The notes under the pieces: model-generated
The model's input: only the letters and a program-made list of their open reading frames with translations
Databases searched by the model: none
Told to the model about the DNA's origin: nothing
Made by a program: the position numbers and the translations under genes
DNA from: Patescibacteria group bacterium
Lineage (GTDB): Bacteria; Patescibacteriota; Minisyncoccia; Minisyncoccales; DG-74-3
Reading direction: 5' to 3'
Length of the DNA stretch: 18,549 bases
Assembly: GCA_018813025.1 (NCBI GenBank)
Contig: JAHJCL010000013.1
Location: 1 to 18,549 of the forward strand
Shown: in pieces, positions 3,895 to 18,549 of the stretch
Layout: each line of letters starts with the position of its first letter
Numbering within the stretch: the stretch's first letter is position 1

Positions 3895-3920
3895 GCAAAA
3901 AGTCCGTTTTAAAACGGACT
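3895..3920 (-). terminator. Rho-independent terminator after the plsY/GGGPS/GGPPS operon
   Basis: Perfect 20-nt palindrome agtccgttttaaaacggact (3901-3920), giving an 8-bp stem and a 4-nt loop. On the minus strand it is followed by TTTTGCAG. It lies 22 nt downstream of the plsY stop. Confidence 0.65.
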
Positions 3921-3941
3921 GTTATGTAATAATAACAGAAG

Positions 3942-4601
3942 TTAATTCTTTGTCAATTTTTTTACTATCCTTTTAATTCTCCAGTCCTTGTAAAAATCGT
4001 CGTCAAAAATTAAACGATTTAATAAAACTTTTCTTCTTACTGCCGGATCTTTTAATTCTTTAATTGGGCTAAGGCGTTTTAAAAAAATCGGCAATAAAGA
4101 TAATTGGACTAATTGACCCACTGAATTTGATAAACCGAATTTATTACCCCAATAAAAGACTAAAACCAGCATAACAATAGTTCCAATAGATAAATTCCAA
4201 ATAATTCCTAATAAAAGGAAGGGAATTAAACTAAATTTAAAAACAACCGGCGAAAAAGCATATAAAGCACCGCCGAAAGTTCCTATTCCTCGGCCTCCGT
4301 TAAATTTTAAAAATAAAGACCAATTGTGGCCGACAACAGCTGCCACTCCGCATAATACCTGTATTGAATCCGGCTGACCATAATACTGAGCTAATCTGAC
4401 AGCCAGATATCCTTTTAAAATATCTAAAAGACCGGTTAAAGCTCCTTGCCAAATACCTATATTTTTAAAAACATTTGAACCAGATGTTTTCCTCCAACCA
4501 ATTTCCAATATGTCCTTTTGAACTGAAAGTTTAGTTATAATATGACCAGACGGAAAAGAGCCTAAAAGATAAGATAAAATAATGAAAAAAATATTTAACA
4601 T
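3942..4601 (-). CDS. plsY: PlsY-family glycerol-3-phosphate acyltransferase (acyl-phosphate dependent), divergent copy 1
   Basis: 219 aa, multi-TM. Matching elements: N-terminus ILSYLLGSFPSGHII, LLDILKG, and GHNWSLFLKFNGGRGIGT (compare GHxxPxxxxFxGGKGxAT). The glycine-rich GSGNxGATN loop is degenerate (GWRKTSGSNVFKN). Confidence 0.8.
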   Translation of the reverse strand: MLNIFFIILSYLLGSFPSGHIITKLSVQKDILEIGWRKTSGSNVFKNIGIWQGALTGLLDILKGYLAVRLAQYYGQPDSIQVLCGVAAVVGHNWSLFLKFNGGRGIGTFGGALYAFSPVVFKFSLIPFLLLGIIWNLSIGTIVMLVLVFYWGNKFGLSNSVGQLVQLSLLPIFLKRLSPIKELKDPAVRRKVLLNRLIFDDDFYKDWRIKRIVKKLTKN

Positions 4602-4635: not shown

Positions 4636-5430
4636 TTATCTAATTAATCCTTTTTCTATTTTTTCTTTGCCTTTTTGTTTGATAATTTTTACAAACTCTT
4701 TAACTAATGCTTTTACATCTTTAGTTTCTTCAGCGGCTGTACCAATAGATAAACAATCAGCTCCGGCCGCAACAACTTTACCGGCTTGTTCAGGAGTTCT
4801 AATTCCTCCACCAACAATATAAATAGCATCTATTGCTTTTCTGACAGTTGTTATCATCTCCAAAGGAATGTGATCAAAAGCAGCTGAGCCGGCATCGGTA
4901 AAGACCATTCTTCTACCAGCAAGCTGGGCTGAAAGAGCTAAAGCAGCTGCGAGTTTCGGCCTATTTCTGGGAACTAAATTGGCATCACCAACCCAGCCAG
5001 CAGTTCCTCCTGGTTCAACTAAAATATAACCTGTGGGCAAAGCTTCTATGCCCATTTTTTTAATCATCGGCGCTGACAGCATTTGAGCTTGAGAAATCCA
5101 ATAAGGATTTCTGGAATTCAATAAACTCATAAAAAACACAGCGTCGGCTGATGCCGAAATTGTAGCAATGTTTCCGGGAAATAAAACAATAGGAACATCT
5201 GTTTCTTTCTTAATTCCCTTAATCACTGAATCTAATAACTCGCCCTGCGCTCCAGTACTGCCACCAACCCCCAGAATATCAGTGCCGGCTTCAACTGCTA
5301 ATAAAGCTGTTTCAATAGCTTTTTGGGGCGTGGAATAATCACAGGGATCAATTAAAATAGATAGAATTGCTCCGTCCTTTTGAACCCTATCATTAATATA
5401 TTTTTCAACTTTTCCTATTAATGGAATCAT
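4636..5430 (-). CDS. Geranylgeranylglyceryl phosphate synthase (GGGPS/PcrB family)
   Basis: 264 aa with TIM-barrel GGGPS/PcrB hallmarks: ILIDP, DILGVGGS, PIVLFPGN, YILVEPGG, IVGGGIRTPEQA. The ATG at 5430 overlaps the upstream GGPPS stop (ATGA). Confidence 0.88.
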   Translation of the reverse strand: MIPLIGKVEKYINDRVQKDGAILSILIDPCDYSTPQKAIETALLAVEAGTDILGVGGSTGAQGELLDSVIKGIKKETDVPIVLFPGNIATISASADAVFFMSLLNSRNPYWISQAQMLSAPMIKKMGIEALPTGYILVEPGGTAGWVGDANLVPRNRPKLAAALALSAQLAGRRMVFTDAGSAAFDHIPLEMITTVRKAIDAIYIVGGGIRTPEQAGKVVAAGADCLSIGTAAEETKDVKALVKEFVKIIKQKGKEKIEKGLIR

Positions 5431-6524
5431 ATTTTTCTTGTAATTAAAAAATTAACGAATTCTTCCAACCTTTTTTTAGCCGGAGATTCAGGTAAAAGTT
5501 TCTCGGCTTCCTGCCAAGCATCTCCCATAATTTCTTTAGCTTTAGTTTGAGCATATTCCACACTGCCATATTTTTTAATTATAGCTATGGCTTCTTCTTT
5601 CTCTTTTATATCATCGGTATGCTTGTCCAATATTCCTATTAATCTGGCTTTATCTTCATCACTGGCTTTCTTTAGAGTATGAATTACCATTAAAGTTCTT
5701 TTACCTTCTTTAATATCATTGCCGAACACTTTACCGAATTTATCTCTTTCTTCTCCTTCAGAAATTATATCTAAAATATCGTCCTGAATTTGAAAGGCAA
5801 CTCCCATTGTCTCAGCTACTCTTCCAGCTGCCTCAACCACTTGATCGCTGCCACCGGATAGAATAACTGCTAATTTAGCCGACATTCTAGAGAGACAACC
5901 TGTTTTGTAAGCACACATTTGCAAATATTCATCTTCTTCAATATTAACTGCCTTACCATTGTGCCAAAAAATATCCGTGCCTTGACCAAGATGAATATTA
6001 ATCATCTCTTGCGCATAAGTTTCATAAGCTTTCTGTAAAATAACACAAGTAAAATTATCTTTGTTCTTGATTAAAGCCAGTAGTGGATAAAAATACATAA
6101 AATTCCCTGCATTAATAGCAACGTCAACACCAAAAACCTTATGAAGACATGGCTCATTTCTTCTTAATTCTCCCATATCTTCAATGTCGTCAACGATAAT
6201 ACTTCCGTTGTGAATTATTTCCGGAATCATTACAATATCTTGGACTTTTTCCAAATCACCTCCAACAGCTTCAACAATTAGTAAAAATAAAACTGGTCGC
6301 CATCTTTTACCACCCCTATCTATAAAATTCCAAATTGGTTTCATGAATACCGCATCGGCCGCGTCCGGACTATAAGTATAACGAGGGTCGCCGAAAACAA
6401 ACTTTAGCCACTCTTGCGTGGCTTTTCTGGGAAGATATTTCTCAATAATTTTATCTATCTCCGGTTTTTTTGATTCTAGATACTCGATAAATTCTTTTGA
6501 CTTACTGTCTTGATTATCAGGCAT
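5427..6524 (-). CDS. Polyprenyl (geranylgeranyl) diphosphate synthase
   Basis: 365 aa trans-isoprenyl diphosphate synthase. First Asp-rich motif: IVDDIEDMGELRRNEP. Second: FQIQDDILD. It also has GKRWRP and GNDIKEGKRT. The HNGSIIVDDIED / INAGNFMYF context resembles type III GGPP synthases. Confidence 0.85.
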   Translation of the reverse strand: MPDNQDSKSKEFIEYLESKKPEIDKIIEKYLPRKATQEWLKFVFGDPRYTYSPDAADAVFMKPIWNFIDRGGKRWRPVLFLLIVEAVGGDLEKVQDIVMIPEIIHNGSIIVDDIEDMGELRRNEPCLHKVFGVDVAINAGNFMYFYPLLALIKNKDNFTCVILQKAYETYAQEMINIHLGQGTDIFWHNGKAVNIEEDEYLQMCAYKTGCLSRMSAKLAVILSGGSDQVVEAAGRVAETMGVAFQIQDDILDIISEGEERDKFGKVFGNDIKEGKRTLMVIHTLKKASDEDKARLIGILDKHTDDIKEKEEAIAIIKKYGSVEYAQTKAKEIMGDAWQEAEKLLPESPAKKRLEEFVNFLITRKI

Positions 6525-6545
6525 AATAAATTTTGAACTATTAAT

Positions 6546-6565
6546 AGTATATTATATAGTATACT
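6546..6565. promoter_or_regulatory. Near-palindrome in the divergent GGPPS/DGGGPS promoter region (candidate operator)
   Basis: agtatattatatagtatact matches its own reverse complement at 18 of 20 positions. It contains TAGTATA twice and sits in the 103-nt divergent intergenic region. The AT-rich background makes chance occurrence plausible. Confidence 0.25.
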
Positions 6566-6627
6566 GGTTATTGTTCTAAGAGAAAAGATAGCTTGTATTT
6601 TTAGCTATTTTGTCTATTATTGAGCTT

Positions 6628-7422
6628 ATGAATCCTTATCTTGAGATTATTCGTCCGCAAACATCATTAATAGCCGGATTAGGAGCAGTAGTGGGTACTA
6701 TTATTGCCGGTGCCCCATTTTGTACTGCTTCTTTATATATTTTCTTAACTGTTTTCCTTATGACCGGAGCCGGTATGGTAATCAATGATTATTATGATTT
6801 GGAAATAGATAAAATTAATGCTCCTCATAGACCATTACCCAGTCAAAGAATGTTACCCAGGACAGCTTTTGGCTACGGATTATTTTTATTCATTTCCAGT
6901 CTTGTTTTTGGAACTTTCACTAATGTTTATTGTTTTGCTTTAGCTCTTTTCAACAGCTTAATTGAATTCTTTTACGCCAAAACATTTAAAAAATGGTGGC
7001 TGTTGGGAAATATTATGGTCAGTTGGTTAGCTGGCTCTGTTTTTTTGTTCGGCGCTATGGTCACCTTTGATTTCAGATTAGTGGGAATTTTGTCCGGACT
7101 GGCTTTTTTAGCCAATATGGGCAGAGAAATTTTCAAAACCATTGAAGATGTTAAAGGAGATCGGGCAATGAATTTGGATACGCTTCCCATCGGTTCGGGA
7201 ATCAAAAATGCCAAAGAAATAGCACGAGGATTTATTTGTTTGGCAATTATCCTTTCTCCTATTCCTTATTTATCCGGACTTTTAAAAAGTACTTACCTAC
7301 AAATTGTTTTAATCAGCGACTTAATTTTTTTCTACTCTCTTTTTCAATCTCCCACTAAGGCTAAAAATTTAGCCAAAATTGCTATGTTTATAGTTCTTTT
7401 AGCAATTTTAGTCAGCTTCTAA
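6628..7422 (+). CDS. UbiA-family prenyltransferase, digeranylgeranylglyceryl phosphate synthase-like
   Basis: About 8 predicted TM segments. UbiA Asp-rich motif: NDYYDLEIDKINAPHRPLPS. Second motif region: KTIEDVKGD. ATG at 6628 gives MNPYLEIIRPQ, typical of the family. The ORF track's alternative TTG start is at 6610. Confidence 0.85.
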   Translation: MNPYLEIIRPQTSLIAGLGAVVGTIIAGAPFCTASLYIFLTVFLMTGAGMVINDYYDLEIDKINAPHRPLPSQRMLPRTAFGYGLFLFISSLVFGTFTNVYCFALALFNSLIEFFYAKTFKKWWLLGNIMVSWLAGSVFLFGAMVTFDFRLVGILSGLAFLANMGREIFKTIEDVKGDRAMNLDTLPIGSGIKNAKEIARGFICLAIILSPIPYLSGLLKSTYLQIVLISDLIFFYSLFQSPTKAKNLAKIAMFIVLLAILVSF

Positions 7423-7428
7423 ATGAAA

Positions 7429-8550
7429 TTATCCAAAACTGGTTCCACTTCTCTGAAGGATTGAAAACAACTTGAATAATTGCCAAGCTCGACTTCTTAA
7501 TTTCGACTTAGAAAAAAACTTAACGAGTCCGGACAAATTCTTCAAATCCAGAGGATTTTTGTTTTCTGAAATATCAGCAATCTCATTCAAAACTGAATTG
7601 GGCAAACTGTACAAAACTTTTTGAGCATACATTAGGTCTTCACTGAAATAGGACATTGATTTTAATTTCTTTTCAAAGAGATGACTGGAATTATTAAGAA
7701 TTGCTTCAGTCGCCAATCTTCCTGAAATCATCGCGTTGTTTATTCCTCCGCCTAAAACCGGGTCAATCAAGGCTCCGGCATCACCAACCAAAAAAACATT
7801 ATCTTTGAATAATTTAATCCTCATTCCGCCATAAGTAATTAATCCGCTCTTATTAGTCAAAAGTTTGTAATTGCCGAATTCAGGAACAACGGTCGTGTCC
7901 ATAAAATATTTAAATCTTTTATCTAACTCTTTATACCCACCCAAACCAATATTAGCTGTATGTTTTGATTTAGGAAAAATCCAAACATATCCATCAGGGT
8001 ATTTCTCTTTATCAAAATATAATCTTATCGTTGATATTAGTACCTCTTTTTCAAGTTCAACTAAATATTCGTAAGTCGGTAAAATCCCGAATTTGCCTCC
8101 AAAGAGCTTAGTTCTGGTTACTGAAAGGGGACCATCAGCGCCAATAATATATTGAGCTCTGTAAATGTCTCCTTTTTCGGTATAGACTGCCCAGCAGTCT
8201 TTTTCCCTTTTTAAATCAACTACTTTGCTTTCTAATTTTATTTCTGCCTGACACTGCGTTGCTAAAAACTTCTCGAAAGCAACCCTATCTAAAACATAAC
8301 CGGCGTCTTGGCCCGGCAAAATAATTTTTTTACCTGAAGGAACAATTACCTCAATATTTTGAATAAACGTAGAAATCCAAGCAGGGTCAGGGGTGATTCC
8401 CTGTATTGATAAAGCTATCTGACTTAAACCCTCGCCACACTGGACTGGTTTACCAATTTCTTTCTTCTTGTCCAGAATTAAAGAATTATCCAAATACTTA
8501 CCGGCAATCAACCCCGCTGGACCGGCTCCAATAATAATCGTCTTAAACAT
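7429..8550 (-). CDS. FAD-dependent geranylgeranyl reductase (digeranylgeranylglycerophospholipid reductase-like)
   Basis: 373 aa. Motifs: N-terminal IIIGAGPAGLIAG dinucleotide fold, YVWIFPK, and GDAGALIDPVLGGGINNAMISG. The start overlaps the plsY copy 2 stop by 8 nt (ATGTTTAA). Confidence 0.85.
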   Translation of the reverse strand: MFKTIIIGAGPAGLIAGKYLDNSLILDKKKEIGKPVQCGEGLSQIALSIQGITPDPAWISTFIQNIEVIVPSGKKIILPGQDAGYVLDRVAFEKFLATQCQAEIKLESKVVDLKREKDCWAVYTEKGDIYRAQYIIGADGPLSVTRTKLFGGKFGILPTYEYLVELEKEVLISTIRLYFDKEKYPDGYVWIFPKSKHTANIGLGGYKELDKRFKYFMDTTVVPEFGNYKLLTNKSGLITYGGMRIKLFKDNVFLVGDAGALIDPVLGGGINNAMISGRLATEAILNNSSHLFEKKLKSMSYFSEDLMYAQKVLYSLPNSVLNEIADISENKNPLDLKNLSGLVKFFSKSKLRSRAWQLFKLFSILQRSGTSFG

Positions 8551-9208
8551 TATTTTGATTTTTTGTTTTTATATTTTTTATACCTCTATAATACCATTTA
8601 GGTATTTCACCTTTAAGAGCTGGAATAACACTTGGCCACTGTTTAATGAAAATTGGAATCGCCATTAAAAGACAAACCAAAAAATAATTGGGAGATAATG
8701 AATAACCAATTAAAGGCAGAAGAAAATTACCCATGAACTGGCCGAAGAAAAAACTTTGAGTAGCTAAAATAAAAACAATAGCCATAGCCGCCCAAGGTAA
8801 AAGCAACCAATTGAAATCTAAAACCCACAATATTCCGATTAAAGAGGCTTGTGCTTTGCCTCCAGAAAGTTTACCATCCTTAATTTTGAAATAAATAGAA
8901 AAACAATGCCCTAGAACTACTCCGAATCCGGCTATGGTCATAACTAAAATTTGATTGTACCCGAGGTAAGAAAAATATTTCGCAATTAATACAGGGAGAG
9001 CTCCTTTGGAGGCATCAATAAAAGTTGTGATTAGAAAAAGTAATGGTTTGTCGGTAACTCGCATTACGTTTAAAGCACCTACATTTTTGGTTTCTTCTTC
9101 CCTAATATCTTTATTTGAATATTTCTTTACAATCAAATAGGCGGTTGGAAAAGAACCTAAAAAATAAGATGAGACGAAGAACAAAATCGAATAAATTATA
9201 TTGTTCAT
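8543..9208 (-). CDS. plsY: PlsY-family acyltransferase, divergent copy 2
   Basis: Multi-TM. Matching elements: YFLGSFPTAYL, NVGALNVMR (partial GSGNxGATNVxR), FIDASKG, and GHCFSIYFKIKDGKLSGGKAQAS (GGKG motif with an insertion). ATG at 9208 is preferred. The ORF track's start at 9220 is a TTG. Confidence 0.8.
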   Translation of the reverse strand: MNNIIYSILFFVSSYFLGSFPTAYLIVKKYSNKDIREEETKNVGALNVMRVTDKPLLFLITTFIDASKGALPVLIAKYFSYLGYNQILVMTIAGFGVVLGHCFSIYFKIKDGKLSGGKAQASLIGILWVLDFNWLLLPWAAMAIVFILATQSFFFGQFMGNFLLPLIGYSLSPNYFLVCLLMAIPIFIKQWPSVIPALKGEIPKWYYRGIKNIKTKNQNNV

Positions 9209-9216
9209 TTCTTTAA

Positions 9217-10917
9217 TCAATAATTTCCATCTATTATATCCCAGGAAGCGATTAAACTTCCACTGACAATACTTTGGTCAAAAACTGAAGCTATAGAATT
9301 GATGAAAGAAACTTCAGCTTTTATTTCTTTCAATCTTTTTTTCAAAGATTCTGCCTGTTCAATATTATTTTTATGAGCAATAACTACTCTGATCTTTTGA
9401 CCATTTTGTCTTGATTTTTTAGTTTGCTTTTTAATTTCTATAAAAATTGCTTCTGATGCGTCTTGGGCTCTAAAACAAGAACTAATCCTAACCCATTGGC
9501 CTCTTCTGAGTCCAACCAACGGCTTAAAACCAATACTTTGCCATCTTTTAGCCCATTTTATAATAGGACTCCTGATAAAATTGTCTTGTTCTACTTTGGC
9601 TAAAAGTGGCAAAAATAGATAGGTCTGAATTTCCCGAGCTTTTTTATCAAGAATTTTAATAATCTCTCTTATTTCCCTCTGTTCTTTAATTAATCCAATG
9701 GCTTTTAAAATTAATAAACCCTGACCCGAACTGATATTTAAAGAATCAAAAACATAAACCCTGTAGGGGTCAACGAGTTTTAAGCGAAACTCCATGGCTT
9801 TTTGATAATTCAAATTAAATTTAGAAGAGCTGACAATAATCAACAATCTTTTAAATTTTTCTAACTGTTGATTGCAAACACTGATAAAATCATCCGGATC
9901 AGACAAAGAAGAAATAACTTTAATATAGTACCTCTCAATAATCTTATCAGTCAAATTTGAACTATTATCAGTAATGATACCAATTGAAAAATTACGCAAT
10001 GACTCTTCTCCGGCTGATTCTCTCGCCATATCTTCAACTCTCATCTCCTTGATTTCTCCAGCTGATCTAATAATTTCTTTTGCTTCTTCAATAGTGTCAG
10101 TATGAATATGAACTTTCATTCGATTACCAAAACTTACAACATCTAAACTATTACCGAATCGACTTAATTTTTCTTTAATGACCTTTTCAGTCATTTTCGG
10201 GTTTTCTATTAAAGCAACTATTTCATAGCGATTAGAAATGGTTTGAATAAATCTCCTAACCTCTTCTGACGGTCTGTCCATAATAATTTTAACTTTTTCT
10301 TCCTGAACTCCGTCTAAAGCATCAAGATAGCTTTCTAAAATGATTAAGAAACCCATCCCGCCGGCATCAACGACATTGGCCTTTTTTAATAACTCCATCT
10401 GGTTCTGCGTTTCTACTAAAGCTTTTTTAGCTTCTTGAATTGCTGTTTGAAACAAAATAATAATATCTTTTTCGGTTGAAACTCCTTGTTCAAAAGATTG
10501 AGCGGTTGCTTCAATCACATCTAAAATAGTTCCTTTTTTCGGGGACTGAATGCTATCTCTGGCCCTTTGATAACCTTTTCGAAAATACTCGGCCAGTTGC
10601 TGCGGTCCGACAGAATTTTCTTTTCCTAAAGAAGAAAAAAATCCAGCTAAAAAACCGGTATAAATAATACCGGCATTACCCTGGGCGGTGGTCATTGCCC
10701 CAGTTAAAATGGCATTAGAAATATCGTTTAAACTATTAAAATTTTTATTTTGAATTTCACTTCGAATCCCAGCCAGAGTCTTAGCTAAATTAGTCCCTGT
10801 GTCTTGATCGGGTACCGGGAAAACATTGATTTTATTTATCTCCTCCTTATCTCTTTCAACTCGTTCATAGGATAGAAGCATCATTTTCTTTAATTCCTTG
10901 GGAGTCAAATAGTCCAT
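9217..10917 (-). CDS. fakA: Fatty acid kinase FakA-like protein (DAK2/DhaL domain plus DegV-like C-terminal domain)
   Basis: 566 aa. The N-terminal DAK2 signature is INVFPVPDQDTGTNLAKT. The C-terminal ~250 aa align by eye with the stand-alone DegV ORF at 14540-15421: IGIITDNSSNLTDKIIERY vs IGLIVDEGADLTPEIIEKY, VFDSLNISSGQGLLILKA vs IIDSLSAVCGEGLLALKA, and GQKIRVVIAH vs GKKIKVFISH. Confidence 0.8.
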   Translation of the reverse strand: MDYLTPKELKKMMLLSYERVERDKEEINKINVFPVPDQDTGTNLAKTLAGIRSEIQNKNFNSLNDISNAILTGAMTTAQGNAGIIYTGFLAGFFSSLGKENSVGPQQLAEYFRKGYQRARDSIQSPKKGTILDVIEATAQSFEQGVSTEKDIIILFQTAIQEAKKALVETQNQMELLKKANVVDAGGMGFLIILESYLDALDGVQEEKVKIIMDRPSEEVRRFIQTISNRYEIVALIENPKMTEKVIKEKLSRFGNSLDVVSFGNRMKVHIHTDTIEEAKEIIRSAGEIKEMRVEDMARESAGEESLRNFSIGIITDNSSNLTDKIIERYYIKVISSLSDPDDFISVCNQQLEKFKRLLIIVSSSKFNLNYQKAMEFRLKLVDPYRVYVFDSLNISSGQGLLILKAIGLIKEQREIREIIKILDKKAREIQTYLFLPLLAKVEQDNFIRSPIIKWAKRWQSIGFKPLVGLRRGQWVRISSCFRAQDASEAIFIEIKKQTKKSRQNGQKIRVVIAHKNNIEQAESLKKRLKEIKAEVSFINSIASVFDQSIVSGSLIASWDIIDGNY

Positions 10918-10925
10918 AGTTTAAA

Positions 10926-11588
10926 TTAGCGAATTTTTTCCTCGAATTCTTTCAAAATTTTAGTGGCTATGTCTTTTCCGCCAAGACCGAAGGCAATACC
11001 CACGGCTATAACTATTGTTCCGATAAAACCGATAAAAATAGTCATAATAAGGTCTGGTGCAATTTGAAGTTGGTAGAGAATTGCCAATATTGATAAACTC
11101 CAAATTATCCAGCGAATAATCCGACCTAAAAAACGGGAATAAGTAATTTTTTCTTTTTCCAAAACAGCAATCATTATTTTCTGGGAGAAATCAGAGATAA
11201 AAACCGCGGTAATAAAAATTAAAGAAGCAATAAAAATGTTAGGGAAATAGGCAATAGCTTGAGCTAAAAGTTGACTAAATTGAAGTAAACCGATAATCTC
11301 GGCCGATGCCATTAAAAAAAGAAGGGTTACAAAACAGCTGGTGATACGACCGAAAAATTTAGGAACATTAAAATAGGTATCGGAAGTCATTAATCTTTCT
11401 TCCAAATCCATTCTTTTAATGGCCTGTCCTAATTGAATTTTTTCTAAAAAACGGCTGACTAAGTTGCCAACCCATTTTGAGACAAAAAGACCGATAATAA
11501 AAATCCAAATTGCCCAAATAAGGTTGGGTAGGTTTTCAACGAAACTCTCTAAAAATAATTGTAAAAAACTTTCTGAAGTAATTAACAT
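10926..11588 (-). CDS. Integral membrane protein of unknown function (about 5 TM, MscS-N-terminal/'TM helix repeat'-like)
   Basis: 220 aa with five hydrophobic segments and a short charged C-terminus (KILKEFEEKIR). It is wedged between carS (20-nt gap) and fakA (8-nt gap). I recognised no catalytic motif. Confidence 0.6.
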   Translation of the reverse strand: MLITSESFLQLFLESFVENLPNLIWAIWIFIIGLFVSKWVGNLVSRFLEKIQLGQAIKRMDLEERLMTSDTYFNVPKFFGRITSCFVTLLFLMASAEIIGLLQFSQLLAQAIAYFPNIFIASLIFITAVFISDFSQKIMIAVLEKEKITYSRFLGRIIRWIIWSLSILAILYQLQIAPDLIMTIFIGFIGTIVIAVGIAFGLGGKDIATKILKEFEEKIR

Positions 11589-11608
11589 ATCATTTAATTA
11601 ATTTTATC

Positions 11609-12178
11609 TTACCATTGGCTCTTAGACAAGCCTAATTTATAGCCAATTTGAGTGGCGCCAACGTGTAGAATAAAAGTTAAGACAAAAAGAACTAACCAGA
11701 CAGATAAATTAATTTGAATTTTAGAAAAAACAAACAGAAAGAGAGCCGCACCAAGAACATAATTAATTTGGTCAAAAGGAACAAACTTCGCTCCCGGTTT
11801 TAAATCTAAACGCCTTTTAATAAAAGCGAAGAATAAATCGCCGAAAATTGCTCCGAGGGTCATTGATAAAGCAAAATTCCAGATATTGATATTGGAATAA
11901 TTTATAATACTGATGCTTTGCATTAACGGACAATTAATGAAAAGCCATTTTTGATAAAAAATAATCATTATTCCGATTGACGAACCTACAATTATACCTC
12001 TCCAAGTTTTATGATCTCCCAACAAGGGTTTGCCCATAAATTGTTTACCTGCGTCAATTGGTTTAGCTAAAAATTTAAATATCCCTAGAGTAGCTGACAA
12101 TGAAGGAGTCATATTTGTCAAATAAGCGGGAAAAAAGAAATAGAAACAAGGTAGGATTAGATTAACAAAATTATCCAT
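11609..12178 (-). CDS. carS: CDP-archaeol synthase (CarS, DUF46 family; CDP-2,3-bis-O-geranylgeranyl-sn-glycerol synthase)
   Basis: 189 aa, 5-TM. CarS family signatures are present: PIDAGKQFMGKPLLGDHKTWRG, GAIFGDLFFAFIKRR, VPFDQINY, and a C-terminal ...LSKSQW. The size matches archaeal CarS. Confidence 0.85.
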   Translation of the reverse strand: MDNFVNLILPCFYFFFPAYLTNMTPSLSATLGIFKFLAKPIDAGKQFMGKPLLGDHKTWRGIIVGSSIGIMIIFYQKWLFINCPLMQSISIINYSNINIWNFALSMTLGAIFGDLFFAFIKRRLDLKPGAKFVPFDQINYVLGAALFLFVFSKIQINLSVWLVLFVLTFILHVGATQIGYKLGLSKSQW

Positions 12179-12221: not shown

Positions 12222-12884
12222 ATGAAAGCTGACTTGCACGTTCATACTAATTATTCTTACGATAGCATATCTTCTCCGCAGGAAATAGTCAAAGCAGCTC
12301 TTCAAAAAGGGCTTGACTGTATTGCTATTTGCGACCATGGAGAAATAAATGGAGCAATTGAAGCAATTAAAGCGGCCTTTGACAAGCCGATTCTGGTTAT
12401 CCCGGGAATTGAGATAAAAAGCCAAGAAGGCGATATTTTGGGTTTAAATGTTAAAACAATAATTCCTAACGGACTTTCAGTCTTGGAAACAATTTTAGAA
12501 ATTAAAAAAGCTGGTGGACTGGTGGTGATACCGCATCCATTCGGACTTTGCTGTTCTTTTGACGGTAATTTAAAAAATATCATTGAACATATTGATGCTA
12601 TAGAAGTTTTAAACGCCAATATTTTTAAGAATAATAACCAAAAAGCTCTATCTTTGGCTAAGGAACATAATTTTGCAATAACCGCTGGTTCTGATGCTCA
12701 CAGCTCAATGTTTGTTGGTGAAGCCTTTTTAGAAATTCCGGGAGAAAAATTATCAATCAGCCAGATATTCGAACAAATTAAGAATAAAAGATGTAAGCCA
12801 TCAGGAAAAGAAACCAATATCTTTTTAAAAGGAATTGCTTTCTTACAGAGAAGTTGGGCAAAAATAAAGTATTACACAAAATAA
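12222..12884 (+). CDS. PHP-domain metal-dependent phosphoesterase
   Basis: 220 aa. PHP motifs: DLHVHTNYSYDS, ICDHG, VVIPHPF, EVLN, GSDAHS. It is divergent from carS (43-nt gap) and lies 6 nt upstream of the CDP-alcohol phosphatidyltransferase. Confidence 0.85.
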   Translation: MKADLHVHTNYSYDSISSPQEIVKAALQKGLDCIAICDHGEINGAIEAIKAAFDKPILVIPGIEIKSQEGDILGLNVKTIIPNGLSVLETILEIKKAGGLVVIPHPFGLCCSFDGNLKNIIEHIDAIEVLNANIFKNNNQKALSLAKEHNFAITAGSDAHSSMFVGEAFLEIPGEKLSISQIFEQIKNKRCKPSGKETNIFLKGIAFLQRSWAKIKYYTK

Positions 12885-12890
12885 CAACCC

Positions 12891-13487
12891 ATGTTATCAG
12901 AAAAAAGAGAACAATTTAAAAAATTAGAAGCAATAGTCGGTGATTTTTTTTCTAAGTTTTTGACTGCTAATCAATATTCTGGTTTAGCCATTTTAATGGC
13001 TTTGTTTTTTTTAAAATTTATTATTTCCGGCAATCTCAAAGTTGCTTTAATTTTTTTAATAACAACTTCTTTTTTAGATTTTGTTGATGGTGCTGTGGCG
13101 CGCAAAACCAACACTGCTTCCAATAAAGGAGCTTATTTGGATACAATTTTAGACCGCTATGTTGAGGCAATCGTTTTGTTCAGTTTCTTATTTCTACCCT
13201 TACCTAAACTATTGTTTCCCAGTTATGTCTGGATTTTATTTACCCTACTCGGTTCTTTTATGACCACTTATGCTAAAGCAGCTGGAAAAGAAAAAGAAAT
13301 ATTAAAAACCGAATTAAAAAAGGGGTTGATTGGCCGGGGAGAAAGAATGATTTTAGAATCTTTAGCCATATTATTCGGTATCTTTAATTTTAATTGGACG
13401 CTATTTTGTATTATTATTTTAGCTATTCTGTCTAACATCACTGCTTTTCAAAGAATTTACCTTGTTTTGAATAATGAAAATATTTAA
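12891..13487 (+). CDS. CDP-alcohol phosphatidyltransferase (archaetidyl/phosphatidyl head-group transferase; head group undetermined)
   Basis: 198 aa, multi-TM. It has an exact D-G-x2-A-R-x8-G-x3-D-x3-D signature: DFVDGAVARKTNTASNKGAYLDTILD. Confidence 0.9.
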   Translation: MLSEKREQFKKLEAIVGDFFSKFLTANQYSGLAILMALFFLKFIISGNLKVALIFLITTSFLDFVDGAVARKTNTASNKGAYLDTILDRYVEAIVLFSFLFLPLPKLLFPSYVWILFTLLGSFMTTYAKAAGKEKEILKTELKKGLIGRGERMILESLAILFGIFNFNWTLFCIIILAILSNITAFQRIYLVLNNENI

Positions 13488-14496
13488 TATTTCAGGACTC
13501 AAAAAAACTTATAGTCTTCTCAGGAAAACTTCTCGAATACAAGGACCTGATATCGATCAAAAATTAATAGACCAGATAATGTATAGTTTTGAGGCACTGC
13601 CACCATTTGGCAAAGAATACTGGTGGTTTCTTTTTTTAGATAATGATGGACCAAAACCAATTCAACTAATGTTAATGATTTGTCGAAAATATGGCAAAGA
13701 AATGTGGATTGATGATACTAAGATGACACTGAAAGATTTAGGGAAAGATGGAATAAAATCAGCTGTAACCGGCTGGCTTTACGATGGAAACAAGATGATC
13801 AACCTGGGCAACACCAATGGAATTGTCAAAATAACTGATAAAAAAATTATTACTGAAATTGCCGGCAATAAATTGATTTTTGAAGGCAGTTTTCCTTTTT
13901 ATAAATTGACAGTGGGTGATATTATTGATTTAAACATCAGTCACGAAAATACTTTAGTCAAAAGAAACAAAGAAGCTTACGGCATTTTCTGGCCACCATT
14001 CGGAGTCGGTTATTTTAATCTTTATCCCGATGTTTCCGGAACTATTTTTGGAAAAACATTTCAAGGAACCGGCCATTTACAAAAAGTTGTCGGTATCGCT
14101 CCTCACTTTCCTTATAACTGGGTCAGAATAATTTTTAAAAACGGATCTATGTTAAGGTTTTCCGATATTCGGCCTAAAAAAATACATGTTGAGAGATCGA
14201 TAGATTTTTATGATAATAATGAAAATAAAATTATTAAATTCAGCAAACCGAGTTTAAAAATATCTCGATCTGACAATTCTTTAATCTGGACATTGGAAGG
14301 ACAGGACAAAAACAATTACGCTAAAGTTGTTTTGGAAGCCTACGCTAAAAAACAATTTGTTATGAAAGGCGGAGGATCATTAACTTATGTTGAGTATTGT
14401 GTTATTCCTAAAGAATTGATTTTAAAAATTAAAGAAAAAACCATCACCTTAAATGATTTAGGTGATGGTGTGGGAACTTTAGAAGACGCCTATTAA
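13474..14496 (+). CDS. Hypothetical soluble protein, function unknown (weak tocopherol-cyclase/CrtC-like pattern, unverified)
   Basis: 340-aa ORF whose start overlaps the preceding transferase gene by 14 nt. No TM segment or signal peptide. The composition is rich in W, F, Y and G and looks beta-rich. Patches GKEYWWFLFL, GIAPHFPYNWVRIIF and C-terminal GVGTLEDAY recall lipocalin-like isoprenoid cyclase/hydratase families, but only from memory. Confidence 0.7.
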   Translation: MKIFNISGLKKTYSLLRKTSRIQGPDIDQKLIDQIMYSFEALPPFGKEYWWFLFLDNDGPKPIQLMLMICRKYGKEMWIDDTKMTLKDLGKDGIKSAVTGWLYDGNKMINLGNTNGIVKITDKKIITEIAGNKLIFEGSFPFYKLTVGDIIDLNISHENTLVKRNKEAYGIFWPPFGVGYFNLYPDVSGTIFGKTFQGTGHLQKVVGIAPHFPYNWVRIIFKNGSMLRFSDIRPKKIHVERSIDFYDNNENKIIKFSKPSLKISRSDNSLIWTLEGQDKNNYAKVVLEAYAKKQFVMKGGGSLTYVEYCVIPKELILKIKEKTITLNDLGDGVGTLEDAY

Positions 14497-14539: not shown

Positions 14540-15421
14540 TTATTCGGCATACCAAGCAAGACCGATAAGTCCCGGGCCAGCGATGCTTCCAACGACATAA
14601 TCAGCTAAAGAAATTAAAACAACTTCTGTATTGTCTAAATTTTCTTTAATTAACTTTCCTAATTTTTCAGCTCCTTCTAAATTAATAATATGAGAGATAA
14701 AAACTTTAATCTTCTTTCCTTCTTGGCGAGGTTTTTTTGTTTTAGACTCAAGTTCTTTAAACAAAGCTTCAGGCACATCCTTAACTCCAGTTTTAACTCC
14801 AATTGGCTTAAGTACGCCTTCTTTAAATCCTAAAATTGGCCTAACGCCAAAATTAGCTGCTTTTCTAATCCAACTGGCTACCATCGGAGAAATACGGCCG
14901 GCATGTTCCAACCATTTAGGATCTTCGAGAATCGCATAAAGATGAATTCTAGATGGCATTTCTTTTAATTCTTTAACAATCATTTCAATATCGTTTCCGT
15001 TATTGATCAATTCAGCGGCTTTTAAGGCTAAAAGTCCCTCACCGCAGACTGCACTTAGAGAATCTATAATAAAAACATTGTTTTTCTGCTCTTCAGGCAG
15101 AAAACTAATTGCTTGAATTGCTGAGTTGTATGTCCCTGATAGTTTAGAGGTAACGGTAGTGCAGATGATCTTATCAAATTTTTCTAATTGCGCTTTAAAA
15201 ATATCTAAAAAATCTTTAGGCGATGGTTGGGATGTTTTACAGAATATTTTTACCCCTCTTTTATCTGCTTCTCGCATTTTGTGAAAAATACTTTCGCCAG
15301 GTAATTCCATTATTTCCGACGGCCACTCTACTTTTAAAGGAACAACTGCAATCTGATATTTCTCTATTATTTCTGGGGTCAAATCAGCCCCCTCATCAAC
15401 TATTAATCCAATTTTATTCAT
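14540..15421 (-). CDS. DegV family fatty-acid-binding protein (FakB-like)
   Basis: 293 aa. DegV hallmarks: N-terminal KIGLIVDEGADL, KTSQPSP, TVTSKLSGTYNSA, IIDSLSAVCGEG, and the C-terminal ISHIINLEGAEKL. Confidence 0.9.
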   Translation of the reverse strand: MNKIGLIVDEGADLTPEIIEKYQIAVVPLKVEWPSEIMELPGESIFHKMREADKRGVKIFCKTSQPSPKDFLDIFKAQLEKFDKIICTTVTSKLSGTYNSAIQAISFLPEEQKNNVFIIDSLSAVCGEGLLALKAAELINNGNDIEMIVKELKEMPSRIHLYAILEDPKWLEHAGRISPMVASWIRKAANFGVRPILGFKEGVLKPIGVKTGVKDVPEALFKELESKTKKPRQEGKKIKVFISHIINLEGAEKLGKLIKENLDNTEVVLISLADYVVGSIAGPGLIGLAWYAE

Positions 15422-15468: not shown

Positions 15469-15542
15469 TGGTGGACCCAGGGAGAATCGAACTCCCATTT
15501 CCACAATGCGAATGTGGCGTCTTGCCATTGGACTATAGGCCC
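15469..15542 (-). tRNA. tRNA-Ala (anticodon CGC), CCA encoded
   Basis: The hand-folded minus-strand sequence is GGGCCTA-TA-GTCC-AATGGCA-AGAC-G-CCACA-TTCGCAT-TGTGG-AAAT-GGGAG-TTCGATT-CTCCC-TGGGTCC-A-CCA. It has a 7-bp acceptor stem with the G3:U70 Ala identity pair and a canonical T-loop. Confidence 0.9.
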
Positions 15543-15543
15543 G

Positions 15544-15616
15544 TCAGGGTGGAGAGATTCGCACTCTCGATCTCCGGCACCCGAGGCCGGCGTCTTAACT
15601 ACTGGACTACACCCTG
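15544..15616 (-). tRNA. tRNA-Pro (anticodon CGG), no encoded CCA
   Basis: The hand-folded sequence is CAGGGTG-TA-GTCC-AGTAGTTA-AGAC-G-CCGGC-CTCGGGT-GCCGG-AGATC-GAGAG-TGCGAAT-CTCTC-CACCCTG-A. C1:G72 and A73 are bacterial Pro features. The D-loop (AG instead of GG) and T-loop (TGC instead of TTC) are atypical. Confidence 0.8.
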
Positions 15617-17165: not shown

Positions 17166-17232
17166 AACTTTATTTTAAACCGAAATTTTTCTTTTTTCAA
17201 TTTACTTGTTAAAATATCTGAATAATAATCAA

Positions 17233-18549
17233 ATGATTAAAAATAAGAAAACATTAACGGTTATAATATTTTTCTTATTTTTGTTTCTATTTTTACCTTT
17301 TGCAGCAAATGGCTCATATTATTGCGACTTCGGAGGATGCGCTCCTGACCCGATAATAATGGAATGTACCAGATTAACTTGCGTAAACGGTGATACTTGT
17401 TATTACACGCCTGATGGATGCGTCCCTCCTTCTTATAATACCTGTGTATACAGTAATGAAGATCCTGATAAACCTTCTTCTGAAGAATGTTATGATGTGG
17501 TCTGTAGTGATAACGGATGGGACCAAATTTCTAATAATGCTAATTGTCCTTCAGGGGAAATATGTAATTCTTCCGGTTTCTGTGAATTAGCTGATCCCAA
17601 TCCTAATCCCAATCCTAACCCCACTCCAAGTACAGGTTTTTGCAATGCGTCAATTATTCCCTGTGGAACAACAGGGACCCCGACTTGTCAATTTTGCCAC
17701 ATTTTTGTTCTTCTGAACAATATCATAACTTATACTTTAACCTGTCTTACTCCAATTGCCGGAGTATTAATGATAGTGATTGGAGGTTTTATATTACTGA
17801 CTGCTGGTAACAACAGAAAAAGATTTGAAGAAGCTAAAAAAATAATTACTGCAACTGTAATTGGCATAGTAATTATATTGACTGCTTGGTTATTATTGAA
17901 TACTTTTTTAACTGCAATCGGCGTAGCAAATTGGACCGGGTTGGGAAGCTGGTGGAGGATAGAATGCGTCTCATTGCCGGAATATTATTTAACTCTTGCT
18001 GCCAATGACTTTGGTGGAACAACTAACCCGACGCCTGGCATCTATCAATATCAAGAGAATAACGAAGTTCAAATGACCGCTTATCCTTTATCCGGATATA
18101 GTTTTGAATATTGGGAATTGGATGGGGTTAACCAAGGAAGTGATAATCCCATCACCTTTTTAATGGATAAAGATTATATTTTGAAAGCTAATTTCAAAGT
18201 TTCAGACGCAAAATTGGCTTGTGATTCCACATGTATTGATAAATACGGCTCAACCTCCTTCGGAACATGTAGCCCGGGTAACATATGTCTACCGGGTAAA
18301 GTTTCCGTGGGTCAGGACGGCTGCTCTTCTGGGGCATGCTGCTGTTTGGAAGTCATTCAAACTTGCTCCGACGGTACACCTTACAGTTCTTGTTTGCCGA
18401 CCAAACCCCTATATTGCAGCGGAGGAACGCTGATCAGCAACTGCTCCCTTTGCGGTTGTTCATCCGGGACTTGCCAATCTGACGGTACGTGTAAAACAAC
18501 AACAACGACGACGTGTAACTCGGCCTGCAAGAATCAGTTAGGTTTGTCT
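17233..18549 (+). CDS. Secreted/membrane-anchored Cys-rich surface protein with a T4SS-pilin (TrbC/VirB2)-like domain; 3' partial
   Basis: This ORF is not in the supplied track because it runs off the window. I translated it by hand from ATG 17233 in frame 1 and found 439 codons with no stop. Domains in order: signal peptide MIKNKKTLTVIIFFLFLFLFLPFAA; a 12-Cys module; a PNPNPNPNP linker (17596-17622); a CPR-type pilin-like two-TM hairpin IIPCG...CQFCHIFVLLNNII...GGFILLTAGNN...IIGIVIILTAWLLLN (about 17638-17940); an InlB-B-repeat-like beta module YYLTLAAN...GYSFEYWELDG...LKANFK (about 17983-18198); and further Cys-rich modules. Confidence 0.85.
   Translation, partial: MIKNKKTLTVIIFFLFLFLFLPFAANGSYYCDFGGCAPDPIIMECTRLTCVNGDTCYYTPDGCVPPSYNTCVYSNEDPDKPSSEECYDVVCSDNGWDQISNNANCPSGEICNSSGFCELADPNPNPNPNPTPSTGFCNASIIPCGTTGTPTCQFCHIFVLLNNIITYTLTCLTPIAGVLMIVIGGFILLTAGNNRKRFEEAKKIITATVIGIVIILTAWLLLNTFLTAIGVANWTGLGSWWRIECVSLPEYYLTLAANDFGGTTNPTPGIYQYQENNEVQMTAYPLSGYSFEYWELDGVNQGSDNPITFLMDKDYILKANFKVSDAKLACDSTCIDKYGSTSFGTCSPGNICLPGKVSVGQDGCSSGACCCLEVIQTCSDGTPYSSCLPTKPLYCSGGTLISNCSLCGCSSGTCQSDGTCKTTTTTTCNSACKNQLGLS

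Follow-up and report, generated by a model that had tools for sequence, protein, structure and literature searches.

The stretch of DNA analysed here, 18,549 nucleotides of contig JAHJCL010000013.1 (assembly GCA_018813025.1) from a Patescibacteria group bacterium and hereafter called the window, carries a bacterial lipid locus in which genes of the archaeal ether-lipid pathway stand among genes for the use of fatty acids. Its lipid region has four parts: an upstream unit on the minus strand in the order CarS-like CDP-lipid synthase, multi-pass transmembrane (TM) protein, FakA-like fatty-acid kinase, PlsY-2 and geranylgeranyl reductase (GGR); a plus-strand gene resembling digeranylgeranylglyceryl phosphate synthase (DGGGPS), which separates this unit from the next; a downstream minus-strand unit in the order geranylgeranyl diphosphate synthase (GGPPS)-like, geranylgeranylglyceryl phosphate synthase (GGGPS) and PlsY-1; and a set of genes divergent from CarS. 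Bacterial housekeeping genes (ClpP, a short trigger factor, a DHH/DHHA2 phosphoesterase, NusA, a CCA-adding enzyme and two tRNAs) share the window, and GC content is uniform, at 0.30-0.37, over these and the lipid locus. The whole window is identical in sequence to contig JBDREJ010000020.1 (GCA_043819845.1), likewise annotated as 'Patescibacteria group bacterium'.

Domain calls rest on Pfam gathering scores and on the curated equivalog cutoffs of NCBIfam. The GGGPS (phosphoglycerol geranylgeranyltransferase; 4636-5430, minus strand) passes the curated cutoffs of NF003198 (300.3 bits; cutoff 247) and TIGR01769 (205.3 bits; cutoff 161.55), and scores just 28 bits against NF003197, the model for heptaprenylglyceryl phosphate synthase (HepGPS). 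The GGR that ends the upstream unit (7429-8550, minus strand) exceeds the cutoffs of TIGR02032 (166.1 bits; cutoff 158.8) and of PF22578 GGR_cat (42.3 bits; cutoff 27), and the motifs GAGPAG and YVWIFPx8GLG can be read in its sequence. The DGGGPS-like gene encodes a UbiA-family prenyltransferase (6610-7422, plus strand; PF01040, 124 bits) with a likely start at ATG 6628, and is called at 264 aa in the NCBI record; its top three NCBIfam models are NF009521 and NF009522, both for DGGGPS, and NF009523 ('prenyltransferase'), it reaches 253 bits against NF009521, under the cutoff of 296, and it carries the Asp-rich motifs NDYYDLEID (NDxxDxxxD) and EDVKGD (DxxxD). The first gene of the downstream unit encodes a short-chain polyprenyl diphosphate synthase (5427-6524, minus strand; PF00348, 227 bits) with DDIED and DDILD motifs, whose best NCBIfam models, IdsA and GGPP synthase, are both scored under cutoff. 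GGGPS and a DGGGPS-like gene are thus found on one bacterial contig together with NusA, ClpP, FakA and PlsY-like genes.

The CarS-like (CDP-archaeol synthase) protein that opens the upstream unit (11609-12178, minus strand) passes the PF01864 gathering cutoff of 22 with 100.7 bits and stays below that of NF003114 (131.5 bits; cutoff 148); its sole significant match among solved structures is the CarS of A. pernix (5GUF, E 5e-10). The TM protein behind it (10926-11588, minus strand), which sits between CarS and FakA in nearly all loci of the Candidate Phyla Radiation (CPR), consists of two PF05552 (MscS-type TM helix) repeats (E 1.5e-17). The FakA-like protein (9217-10917, minus strand) has the full three-domain architecture of Dak2 (PF02734), FakA middle (PF21645) and DegV-like C-terminal (PF02645) domains, and scores far under its equivalogs (TIGR03599, 247 bits, cutoff 396; NF038248, 150 bits, cutoff 975); a gene for a DegV/FakB-type fatty-acid-binding protein lies at 14540-15421 (minus strand; PF02645, 180 bits; TIGR00762, 190.7 bits, above the cutoff of 99.7). 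PlsY-2 (8543-9208, minus strand; PF02660, 108.4 bits; TIGR00023, 88 bits) and PlsY-1 (3942-4601, minus strand; PF02660, 105.6 bits; TIGR00023, 106 bits) both pass the PF02660 cutoff of 24.1 bits, and 5XJ5 is the only solved structure that either matches. Divergent from CarS are a PHP-domain phosphoesterase (12222-12884, plus strand; PF02811, PF13263), a candidate phosphatase of lipid-head-group phosphate, and a CDP-alcohol phosphatidyltransferase resembling archaetidylinositol-phosphate synthase (AIPS; 12891-13487, plus strand; PF01066). The best NCBIfam model of the latter is NF040950 (125.6 bits; cutoff 180), with phosphatidylinositol-phosphate synthases ranking next, and a PHP gene adjoins a CDP-alcohol transferase gene throughout the CPR loci and in Woesearchaeota too.

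The gene identities, coordinates and junction spacings given by a first-pass annotation of the window were all borne out on the minus-strand sequence. Gaps of 20 nt and 8 nt separate CarS from the TM protein and the TM protein from FakA; the FakA stop lies 8 nt ahead of the PlsY-2 ATG at 9208, the start favoured by the N-termini of orthologues, or overlaps a TTG at 9220 by 4 nt; and PlsY-2 and GGR overlap by 8 nt (ATGTTTAA, 8543-8550). GGR converges with DGGGPS across a 6-nt gap. In the downstream unit, GGPPS and GGGPS overlap by 4 nt (ATGA) and 34 nt lie between GGGPS and PlsY-1, after which the unit is closed by an intrinsic terminator (3896-3920, minus strand): a hairpin at 3920-3901 (GUCCGUUU/AAACGGAC) with a U-run, whose folding free energy of -13.7 kcal/mol (z -5.15) was equalled by 0 of 200 shuffles, so that the terminator proposed 3' of plsY copy 1 is real. 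No convincing intrinsic terminator was found in the lipid units ahead of 3920-3896, nor any bidirectional one at the convergent GGR/DGGGPS junction. Promoters are presumed to lie in the divergent intergenic region between GGPPS and DGGGPS (6525-6609; 85 nt, or 103 nt if DGGGPS starts at 6628), where there is a promoter-like match on the plus strand (TTGAAC/TATAGT, 6533-6560); such matches show no excess over shuffled controls (35 observed, 32.2±6.9 in the controls). The best sigma-70-like match of the region (3929-3956, minus strand; TTGACA-16-TATTAT with TG, 11/12) falls within the last codons of PlsY-1, with the terminator hairpin directly behind it and nusA 142 nt downstream, and this promoter-then-terminator arrangement at 3896-3956 could be a nusA leader or attenuator, or the match could be one of chance.

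Each minus-strand unit bears the marks of an operon, with genes on the same strand, short gaps, no internal terminator and a conserved order. Co-transcription of the two units, as the first-pass annotation had it, is therefore plausible, the genes being co-directional, with gaps of at most 20 nt in the upstream unit and no convincing terminator inside; the tight spacing on which that argument leaned proved to be the norm. As a sign of functional coupling it was rejected as weak, since the window is 96.5% coding, functionally unrelated neighbours are just as close (a 4-nt overlap of trigger factor with DHH, and 12 nt between ClpP and trigger factor) and promoter-like matches stand at the shuffled level. 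The true evidence for linkage is conserved synteny, in gene order and in the junctions themselves: PlsY-2 and GGR overlap by 8 nt in locus L003 and 4 nt in L005, GGPPS and GGGPS by 4 nt in both, and the arrangement of the window is kept across independent assemblies down to 58% CarS identity.

This synteny emerged from a CarS-profile scan of one genome per species (60 loci), from context look-ups for homologues of PlsY-2, CarS and GGGPS, and from a GGGPS-profile scan of metagenomes (516 relatives, 80 of them kept), with all loci, labelled L001 onward, annotated via tblastn against a reference gene set. Absences of genes for fatty-acid synthesis (FAS), PlsC, canonical PlsY and acetyl-CoA carboxylase (ACC) are statements about the locus (the window, or stretches of up to 10 kb) and not about the genome. 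A backbone of PHP and CDP-alcohol transferase genes divergent from CarS-TM-FakA is conserved over Paceibacteria-type CPR, and the part after FakA varies. In the FAS type, which comprises 22 species loci and takes in complete Nealsonbacteria genomes, the genes after FakA are thiolase, DUF359, DUF362, BioY, FabG, FabA/FabK-like and PlsC, with no GGGPS and no window-type DGGGPS within the stretches of up to 10 kb; its right-hand end, seen in L009 and L011, runs PlsC-ACC-PlsY-2-DegV-PlsY-1-NusA. About eight loci, including that of Ca. Microsyncoccus archaeolyticus, are of a salvage-only type (PlsY-0, CarS-TM-FakA-DegV-DegV-PlsY-2-PlsY-1). The window type, FakA-PlsY-2-GGR-(DGGGPS)-GGPPS-GGGPS-PlsY-1-NusA, recurs in L001-L006, L014-L016, L018 (Parcubacteria bacterium DG_74_3), L075, L076, L079, L089 and L091, and again, less PlsY-2, in L080, L082, L087 and L093. 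Co-directional arrays with both modules, FabG-FabK-PlsC-ACC-GGR-(UbiA)-GGPPS-GGGPS-(DegV)-PlsY-1-NusA, are found in L074, L083, L084, L092, L094 and L096-L098, with the carboxyltransferase (CT) and GGR genes overlapping by 2 nt in L094; partial combinations of the modules occur in L020 and L026. In five of the arrays with both modules (L092, L094, L096-L098; GGR-GGPPS-GGGPS) no UbiA/DGGGPS match lies in the array, and these genomes may add the second chain of GGGP (the GGGPS product) by another route. Wherever a stretch reaches far enough, the ether module stands directly upstream of (DegV-)PlsY-1-NusA, and because its position is always the same the series is consistent with one acquisition by a fatty-acid lipid locus and differential losses thereafter, the window standing for the state that has shed FAS, PlsC and ACC from the locus.

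The same survey changes what is to be regarded as mixed in this DNA. The first-pass annotation had taken carS beside fakA as a joining of both sides of the lipid divide. This did not hold: CarS-TM-FakA is a conserved Paceibacteria lipid locus, found mostly beside FAS and PlsC genes, and CarS-like orthologues, 41-100% identical across Patescibacteria, occur also in the 22 FAS-type and about eight salvage-only loci that have neither GGGPS nor window-type DGGGPS. Given this conservation beside FakA in genomes with no ether genes nearby, the CarS-like enzyme is probably a general CDP-lipid synthase of the clade, and of episymbionts more widely, that accepts acyl lipids as well, and its place beside fakA would not in itself cross the divide. 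The truly mixed feature is the DPANN-like module of GGR, DGGGPS, GGPPS and GGGPS inserted into a fatty-acid lipid locus. The closest archaeal CarS relatives, at 35-40% identity, are those of DPANN Woesearchaeota and Nanoarchaeota, and CarS adjoins a match to a PlsC-type acyltransferase in 6 of 12 archaeal loci. One of these, a Ca. Woesearchaeota locus checked with Pfam (L060, 5913-10537), sets CarS with a bacterial PlsC-type acyltransferase, a PHP protein, a family-2 glycosyltransferase (GT2) and two CDP-alcohol transferases; the pairing of CarS with a PlsC-type match was also seen in L057, L059, L061, L065 and L066. A head-group module common to the CPR and DPANN episymbiont radiations appears to underlie these arrangements.

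Within the FAS-type loci a compact block of thiolase, DUF362, BioY, FabG, FabA/FabK, FabK, PlsC and ACC genes (biotin carboxylase, biotin carboxyl carrier protein, biotin protein ligase and CT) was noted in L007, L009, L011, L023, L030 and about 20 others. No acyl carrier protein (ACP), FabH/FabF-type ketoacyl-ACP synthase or PlsX was found in the gene-called, Pfam-annotated stretches of L007, L009 and L011, and the block of Paceibacteria and Nealsonbacteria looks like an ACP-independent route of fatty-acid synthesis, in organisms usually described as unable to make lipids. In L026 (14653-16687) a DUF6580 protein and a 506-aa B12-binding radical SAM/DUF4070 protein lie between DUF359 and DUF362 of the FAS block; B12-binding radical SAM enzymes of this class elsewhere make membrane-spanning or cyclised lipids. 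The FAS-type gene list agrees with the partial FAS genes of Minisyncoccus archaeiphilus (AccC, FabK, FabG, FabA-like; PMC12281837).

GGGPS bears on where the ether genes came from. Its closest named relatives outside CPR, at 62-67% identity, are from Ca. Aenigmarchaeota, on contigs that are truly archaeal (TFIIB, histone and aIF5A are present) and one of which, L012, has an iron-containing alcohol dehydrogenase resembling glycerol-1-phosphate dehydrogenase (G1PDH) adjoining GGGPS. For comparison, the CPR loci concerned share 72-77% identity in NusA, which is inherited vertically, so that an inter-domain transfer between DPANN-like archaea and Paceibacteria is the parsimonious reading of these sequence distances, with a direction from archaea to CPR that we infer. 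In the metagenome scan, relatives of at least 63% identity on loci of at least 4 kb had CPR contexts; at 63% or below, several loci had archaeal markers (TFIIB, aIF5A) and most others, holding no reference gene, were unassignable. CPR-context and Aenigmarchaeota sequences fall on opposite sides of a midpoint-rooted neighbour-joining tree. A block transfer of the complete ether module from Aenigmarchaeota was considered and is unsupported: in L012 and L013 GGGPS is not clustered with DGGGPS or GGR, having near it only the G1PDH-like gene (in L012) and a distant polyprenyl synthase. Since the Aenigmarchaeota genes are arranged otherwise than the CPR block, the operon organisation of the ether genes is a CPR feature.

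The two PlsY-like proteins had been taken for two copies of plsY. Both do belong to PF02660, but they are not copies of one another: they share 32% identity over 105 residues and belong to distinct, non-canonical families that, with their orthologues, score 88-112 bits against the TIGR00023 PlsY equivalog and miss its cutoff of 137.2. When 49 PlsY-family proteins of these loci are aligned with the Aquifex enzyme and a PlsY of Lactobacillus, three orthologous groups (PlsY-0, -1 and -2) are separated by identities of 26-28% between and 46-55% within groups, and a recent duplication was on these grounds rejected. PlsY-0, whose gene in relatives is flanked by that for the CCA-adding enzyme on one side and by DegV or CarS on the other, has lost almost none of the functional residues known from Aquifex (PMC5700162) and scores above the TIGR00023 cutoff, at 156-182 bits. 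In the Aquifex structure, whose numbering is used here, G3P (glycerol-3-phosphate) is held by a phosphate clamp of S35, R45, K104 and N180 and by the 2-OH ligands S142 and H177, and the acyl-phosphate site is formed by the side chains of T41 (where S is tolerated) and H92 and by a GGKG loop (PMC5700162). The window's PlsY-2 has S35T, T41L, S142Q, H177Q and N180S and keeps N37, R45, H92 and K104, much like its group (T41L/M, S142Q, H177Q, N180 replaced; S/T35, N37, R45, H92 and K104 kept); its PlsY-1 has S35W, N37K, T41S, R45K, K104R, H177R, N180P and M at 142, and keeps H92. The phosphate clamp accordingly reads W/K/R/P in PlsY-1 and T/R/K/S in PlsY-2, unlike that of the G3P pocket, and the acyl-phosphate loop is GGRGIGT in PlsY-1 and, with 5 residues inserted, GGKAQAS in PlsY-2. 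To judge by these residues, the active site seems to have been kept at least in part on its acyl-phosphate side and to be remodelled on its acceptor side, which would be compatible with an acceptor other than G3P, though the remodelling is not specific to genomes with ether genes.

The distribution of the two families bears on their history. PlsY-2 is CPR-specific, scores falling from 204 to 84 bits among full-length matches, and PlsY-1 is always directly upstream of NusA wherever NusA follows on the same strand. Both are present in L009 and L011, FAS-type loci whose stretches include PlsC but no ether genes, and in L048-L056, which lack FAS and ether genes alike. They were therefore not invented for the ether pathway and predate the ether genes, and recruitment specifically for that pathway was rejected as a general statement. 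Within 10 kb, the PlsY-family genes of the window and of all window-type loci are PlsY-1 with PlsY-2 or PlsY-1 by itself, and PlsC is absent. Two PlsY-like proteins outside CPR, P0222 and P0221, one of them labelled Chlorobi, a member of the Fibrobacteres-Chlorobi-Bacteroidetes (FCB) lineage, show part of these substitutions (F41, K45, R104 and P at 180), and non-canonical PlsY families may be wider than CPR.

The reading that we favour, if only on balance, is that of a Paceibacteria-type CPR lipid locus serving a membrane in which archaeol-type phospholipids and salvaged fatty acids occur together. The ancestral locus would have consisted of a divergent part, with the PHP phosphatase and the AIPS-like transferase, and a main array of CarS-like, TM and FakA genes, an ACP-independent-looking FAS block with PlsC and ACC, then PlsY-2, DegV, PlsY-1 and NusA; into this, directly upstream of (DegV-)PlsY-1, DPANN-archaeon-like GGR, DGGGPS and GGPPS-GGGPS genes would have been inserted. 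GGPPS would make geranylgeranyl diphosphate (GGPP), GGGPS would join it by an ether link to glycerol-1-phosphate (G1P), DGGGPS would add the second chain and GGR would saturate the chains, from a supply of G1P and isopentenyl diphosphate (IPP) that the cell is presumed to have. The clade's own CarS-like enzyme would then activate the lipid with CDP, after which the AIPS-like transferase would attach an inositol-type head group for the PHP phosphatase to trim. On the acyl route, scavenged fatty acids bound by DegV would be phosphorylated by FakA, and the resulting acyl-phosphate used by PlsY-1 and PlsY-2 as acyltransferases of the membrane. Archaeol-type and acyl lipids alike would be finished by a shared set of CDP-activation and head-group enzymes, and hydrocarbon chains of the cell's own making would come from the ether pathway in place of de novo fatty-acid synthesis.

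Precedents from the FCB bacteria make such a membrane plausible. Escherichia coli provided with GGGPS and DGGGPS of Cloacimonetes makes archaeal-type lipids, with no known G1PDH, and the CdsA and head-group enzymes of bacteria can also work on archaeal substrates (PMC7852524, PMC6431249); PlsY and PlsC, moreover, accept both enantiomers of glycerol phosphate (PMC13400652). Several observations weigh on the other side. Both PlsY-1 and PlsY-2 lack residues essential for G3P acylation in the Aquifex enzyme (PMC5700162), and the window, with no canonical PlsY or PlsC, offers no evident way to complete a diacyl lipid. No G1PDH was found in any CPR locus examined by tblastn with an Aenigmarchaeota G1PDH query, a single-protein metagenome scan giving only pattern matches, no relative confirmed, that are uninformative rather than negative; no IPP pathway, by mevalonate or methylerythritol phosphate, was seen in the window; and CarS, DGGGPS, GGPPS and FakA all score under their NCBIfam equivalog cutoffs.

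These low scores, for DGGGPS, GGPPS and CarS, would also suit an essentially bacterial membrane of scavenged fatty acids or lysolipids, in which the isoprenoid product is minor, a non-bilayer compound, carrier or signal to be compared with the PcrB-type polyprenylglyceryl lipids of Bacillus, and the CarS-like enzyme is mainly a CdsA analogue. CarS-like genes are near-universal in the clade where no ether genes are nearby, FakA, DegV and PlsY genes are kept in every variant of the locus, and the CPR membranes analysed so far are fatty-acid-based and rich in lysolipids (10.1101/465690). We nevertheless consider this unlikely: GGPPS, GGGPS, DGGGPS, GGR, CarS and an AIPS-like transferase together make up the exact archaeal pathway to bilayer lipids, this ether set is conserved as a block over a deep divergence (CarS identities of 58-100%), and FAS, PlsC and canonical PlsY are absent from the locus in the window lineage. 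Their loss, together with the remodelled G3P pocket of both PlsY paralogues and the dispensability of PlsY-2 in the ether-type loci L080, L082, L087 and L093, could be turned to the opposite conclusion of an essentially archaeal, diether-only membrane, with FakA, DegV and the PlsY-like proteins left to lysolipid re-acylation, fatty-acid detoxification or non-lipid acylation. That is very doubtful, given that every variant keeps FakA, DegV and PlsY-1, closely packed within its operons, and that the absence of PlsC and canonical PlsY is known for the locus and not genome-wide.

Between these stands the proposal of true hybrid lipids, rather improbable in our estimation, in which one or both PlsY paralogues would acylate an acceptor other than G3P (GGGP or lyso-archaetidic acid) to give a prenyl-ether/acyl-ester that CarS then activates. 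The replaced 2-OH and phosphate residues of the acceptor site in both paralogues, with H92 kept and S41 in PlsY-1 (PMC5700162), speak for it, as do the lack of canonical PlsY and PlsC in the window and within 10 kb in window-type loci, the constant place of GGGPS directly upstream of (DegV-)PlsY-1, and the five arrays that lack a UbiA/DGGGPS match, where a second, non-prenyl chain would be needed. Both paralogue families are, on the other hand, older than and independent of the ether genes, occurring in L009, L011 and L048-L056, the window's own DGGGPS-like enzyme would use up GGGP, and we know of no PlsY-family enzyme that acylates a GGGP-type acceptor. It is to the same slight degree probable that the window lineage builds natural ether/acyl-ester hybrid glycerophospholipids activated by a promiscuous CarS-like enzyme that DPANN archaea also possess. 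An assembly or binning artefact joining archaeal to bacterial DNA, finally, might be suspected from a GGGPS so unusually close (62-67% identity) to archaeal sequences, but is effectively refuted: the same order recurs in more than 15 independent assemblies from many samples, including contigs of 256 kb, 359 kb (SDBU01000003.1) and 584 kb (Ga0247841_10000006), the archaeal-type genes overlap or abut bacterial ones between flanks of NusA, ClpP, trigger factor and CCA-adding enzyme, and composition is uniform. Here the first-pass annotation, which had argued against misassembly, was right.

The favoured reading, of archaeol-type and acyl lipids in one membrane, finds its nearest parallel in Ca. 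Cloacimonetes of the FCB group, where GGGPS and DGGGPS are co-localised, with a polyprenyl synthase and GGR, beside fatty-acid lipid genes, where no G1PDH was found either and where a mixed membrane has been proposed (PMC7852524, PMC6431249). The window differs in having a CarS-family gene, reported missing in Cloacimonetes, in the physical embedding of its ether genes in fatty-acid lipid operons, in a CPR host that is a reduced-genome episymbiont and in the loss of FAS and PlsC from the locus of its lineage; and its nearest archaeal GGGPS is that of DPANN Aenigmarchaeota, as against the TACK/Crenarchaeota affinity of the bacterial clade as a whole (PMC7852524). Villanueva et al. 2021 found GGGPS and DGGGPS together in one Ca. 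Parcubacteria genome, which may be DG_74_3 (L018), and noted that co-localisation in bacteria seemed restricted to Cloacimonetes (PMC7852524), a restriction that does not hold for these CPR loci. Archaeal-type lipid genes in FCB bacteria are therefore already known, there without CarS and not reported within fatty-acid lipid operons. In the literature we found no paper on ether-lipid genes in CPR operons, on a FAS-to-ether series or on the PlsY paralogue classes, and reviews of archaeon-parasitising Paceibacteria (Nealsonbacteria, Microsyncoccus, Minisyncoccus) mention partial FAS genes only and no ether-lipid genes.

With the canonical archaeal phospholipid pathway the window shares enzyme families and their order, a GGGPS and a GGR that pass cutoffs and a CarS whose only structural match is that of A. 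pernix; it departs from it in lying on a bacterial chromosome, with G1PDH not detected, in sharing operons with FakA and PlsY-like genes, and in a CarS-like family conserved also in relatives that have no ether genes. Bacillus has, in PcrB and AraM, a GGGPS-family enzyme in a bacterium and G1P-based heptaprenylglyceryl-phosphate ether lipids, but the window enzyme falls in the GGGPS and not the HepGPS models, has DGGGPS, CarS and GGR alongside, and has no AraM-type gene that could be seen. The FAS-type locus of Paceibacteria and Nealsonbacteria has the same backbone (PHP and CDP-alcohol transferase divergent from CarS-TM-FakA, then PlsY-2-DegV-PlsY-1-NusA), from which the window differs in lacking the block from thiolase to ACC and PlsC and in having GGR, DGGGPS, GGPPS and GGGPS instead. 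A three-domain FakA, a DegV protein and PF02660 acyltransferases recall the Firmicute route from FakA and FakB (DegV) through acyl-phosphate to PlsY and PlsC (PMC9136124, PMC5700162); unlike that route, the window has no PlsX or PlsC, its PlsY-like proteins fail the equivalog cutoff and its FakA is far under its own. FakA and DegV offer the missing source of acyl-phosphate in CPR that have no PlsX, and would thereby answer the puzzle of Nealsonbacteria, which have PlsY and PlsC but no PlsX and whose acyl-phosphate source has been unexplained (10.1101/465690).

Of the remaining genes, the one at 13474-14496 (plus strand), which overlaps the head-group transferase gene by 14 nt, encodes a 340-aa protein with no significant Pfam or NCBIfam match. 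Its AlphaFold2 (AF2) model (pLDDT 91) is a double beta-barrel of the AttH/CrtC kind, and Foldseek matched it with AttH (2ICH), the fungal Diels-Alderases Fsa2 and Phm7 and kievitone hydratase (E 6e-9 to 1e-5, TM-score about 0.5); CghA, likewise a fungal Diels-Alderase, and 25-phosphosteroid lyase are also among its best structural matches. It belongs to a small family, with 86 relatives in a set of 1.84 billion representative proteins, and to judge by its modelled fold may act on a lipid or isoprenoid chain as a hydratase or lyase. The tRNA-Ala(CGC) and tRNA-Pro(CGG) genes (15469-15616, minus strand), beyond which an Rfam scan of the window found nothing, abut with no spacer and lie between DegV and the gene for the CCA-adding enzyme, at the position that PlsY-0 has in relatives. 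The trigger factor (608-1486, minus strand) is only 292 aa long, with N- and C-terminal domains present and no match to a PPIase domain found. At the other end a reading frame (about 17232-18549, plus strand), open for more than 440 codons and with an N-terminus like a signal peptide, continues past the end of the window, where GC climbs to 0.51.

Taken together, these loci form a graded series at one chromosomal site, from FAS only, through FAS with ether genes, to ether genes with salvage only, over which the CDP-activation and head-group genes are common and in which GGGPS differs by only about 35% from its counterpart in DPANN archaea. Parasitism of methanogens has been reported for related Paceibacteria, and a link of the window lineage to archaeal hosts is a lead rather than a result. 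Two uncharacterised PlsY-like families have been brought to light along the way. The series would offer a natural system in which to ask whether both lipid chemistries can be accommodated by a single membrane and a single set of downstream enzymes, how the replacement of one lipid type by another is staged in evolution, and whether the exchange of lipid genes between CPR and DPANN is tied to the episymbiont lifestyle.

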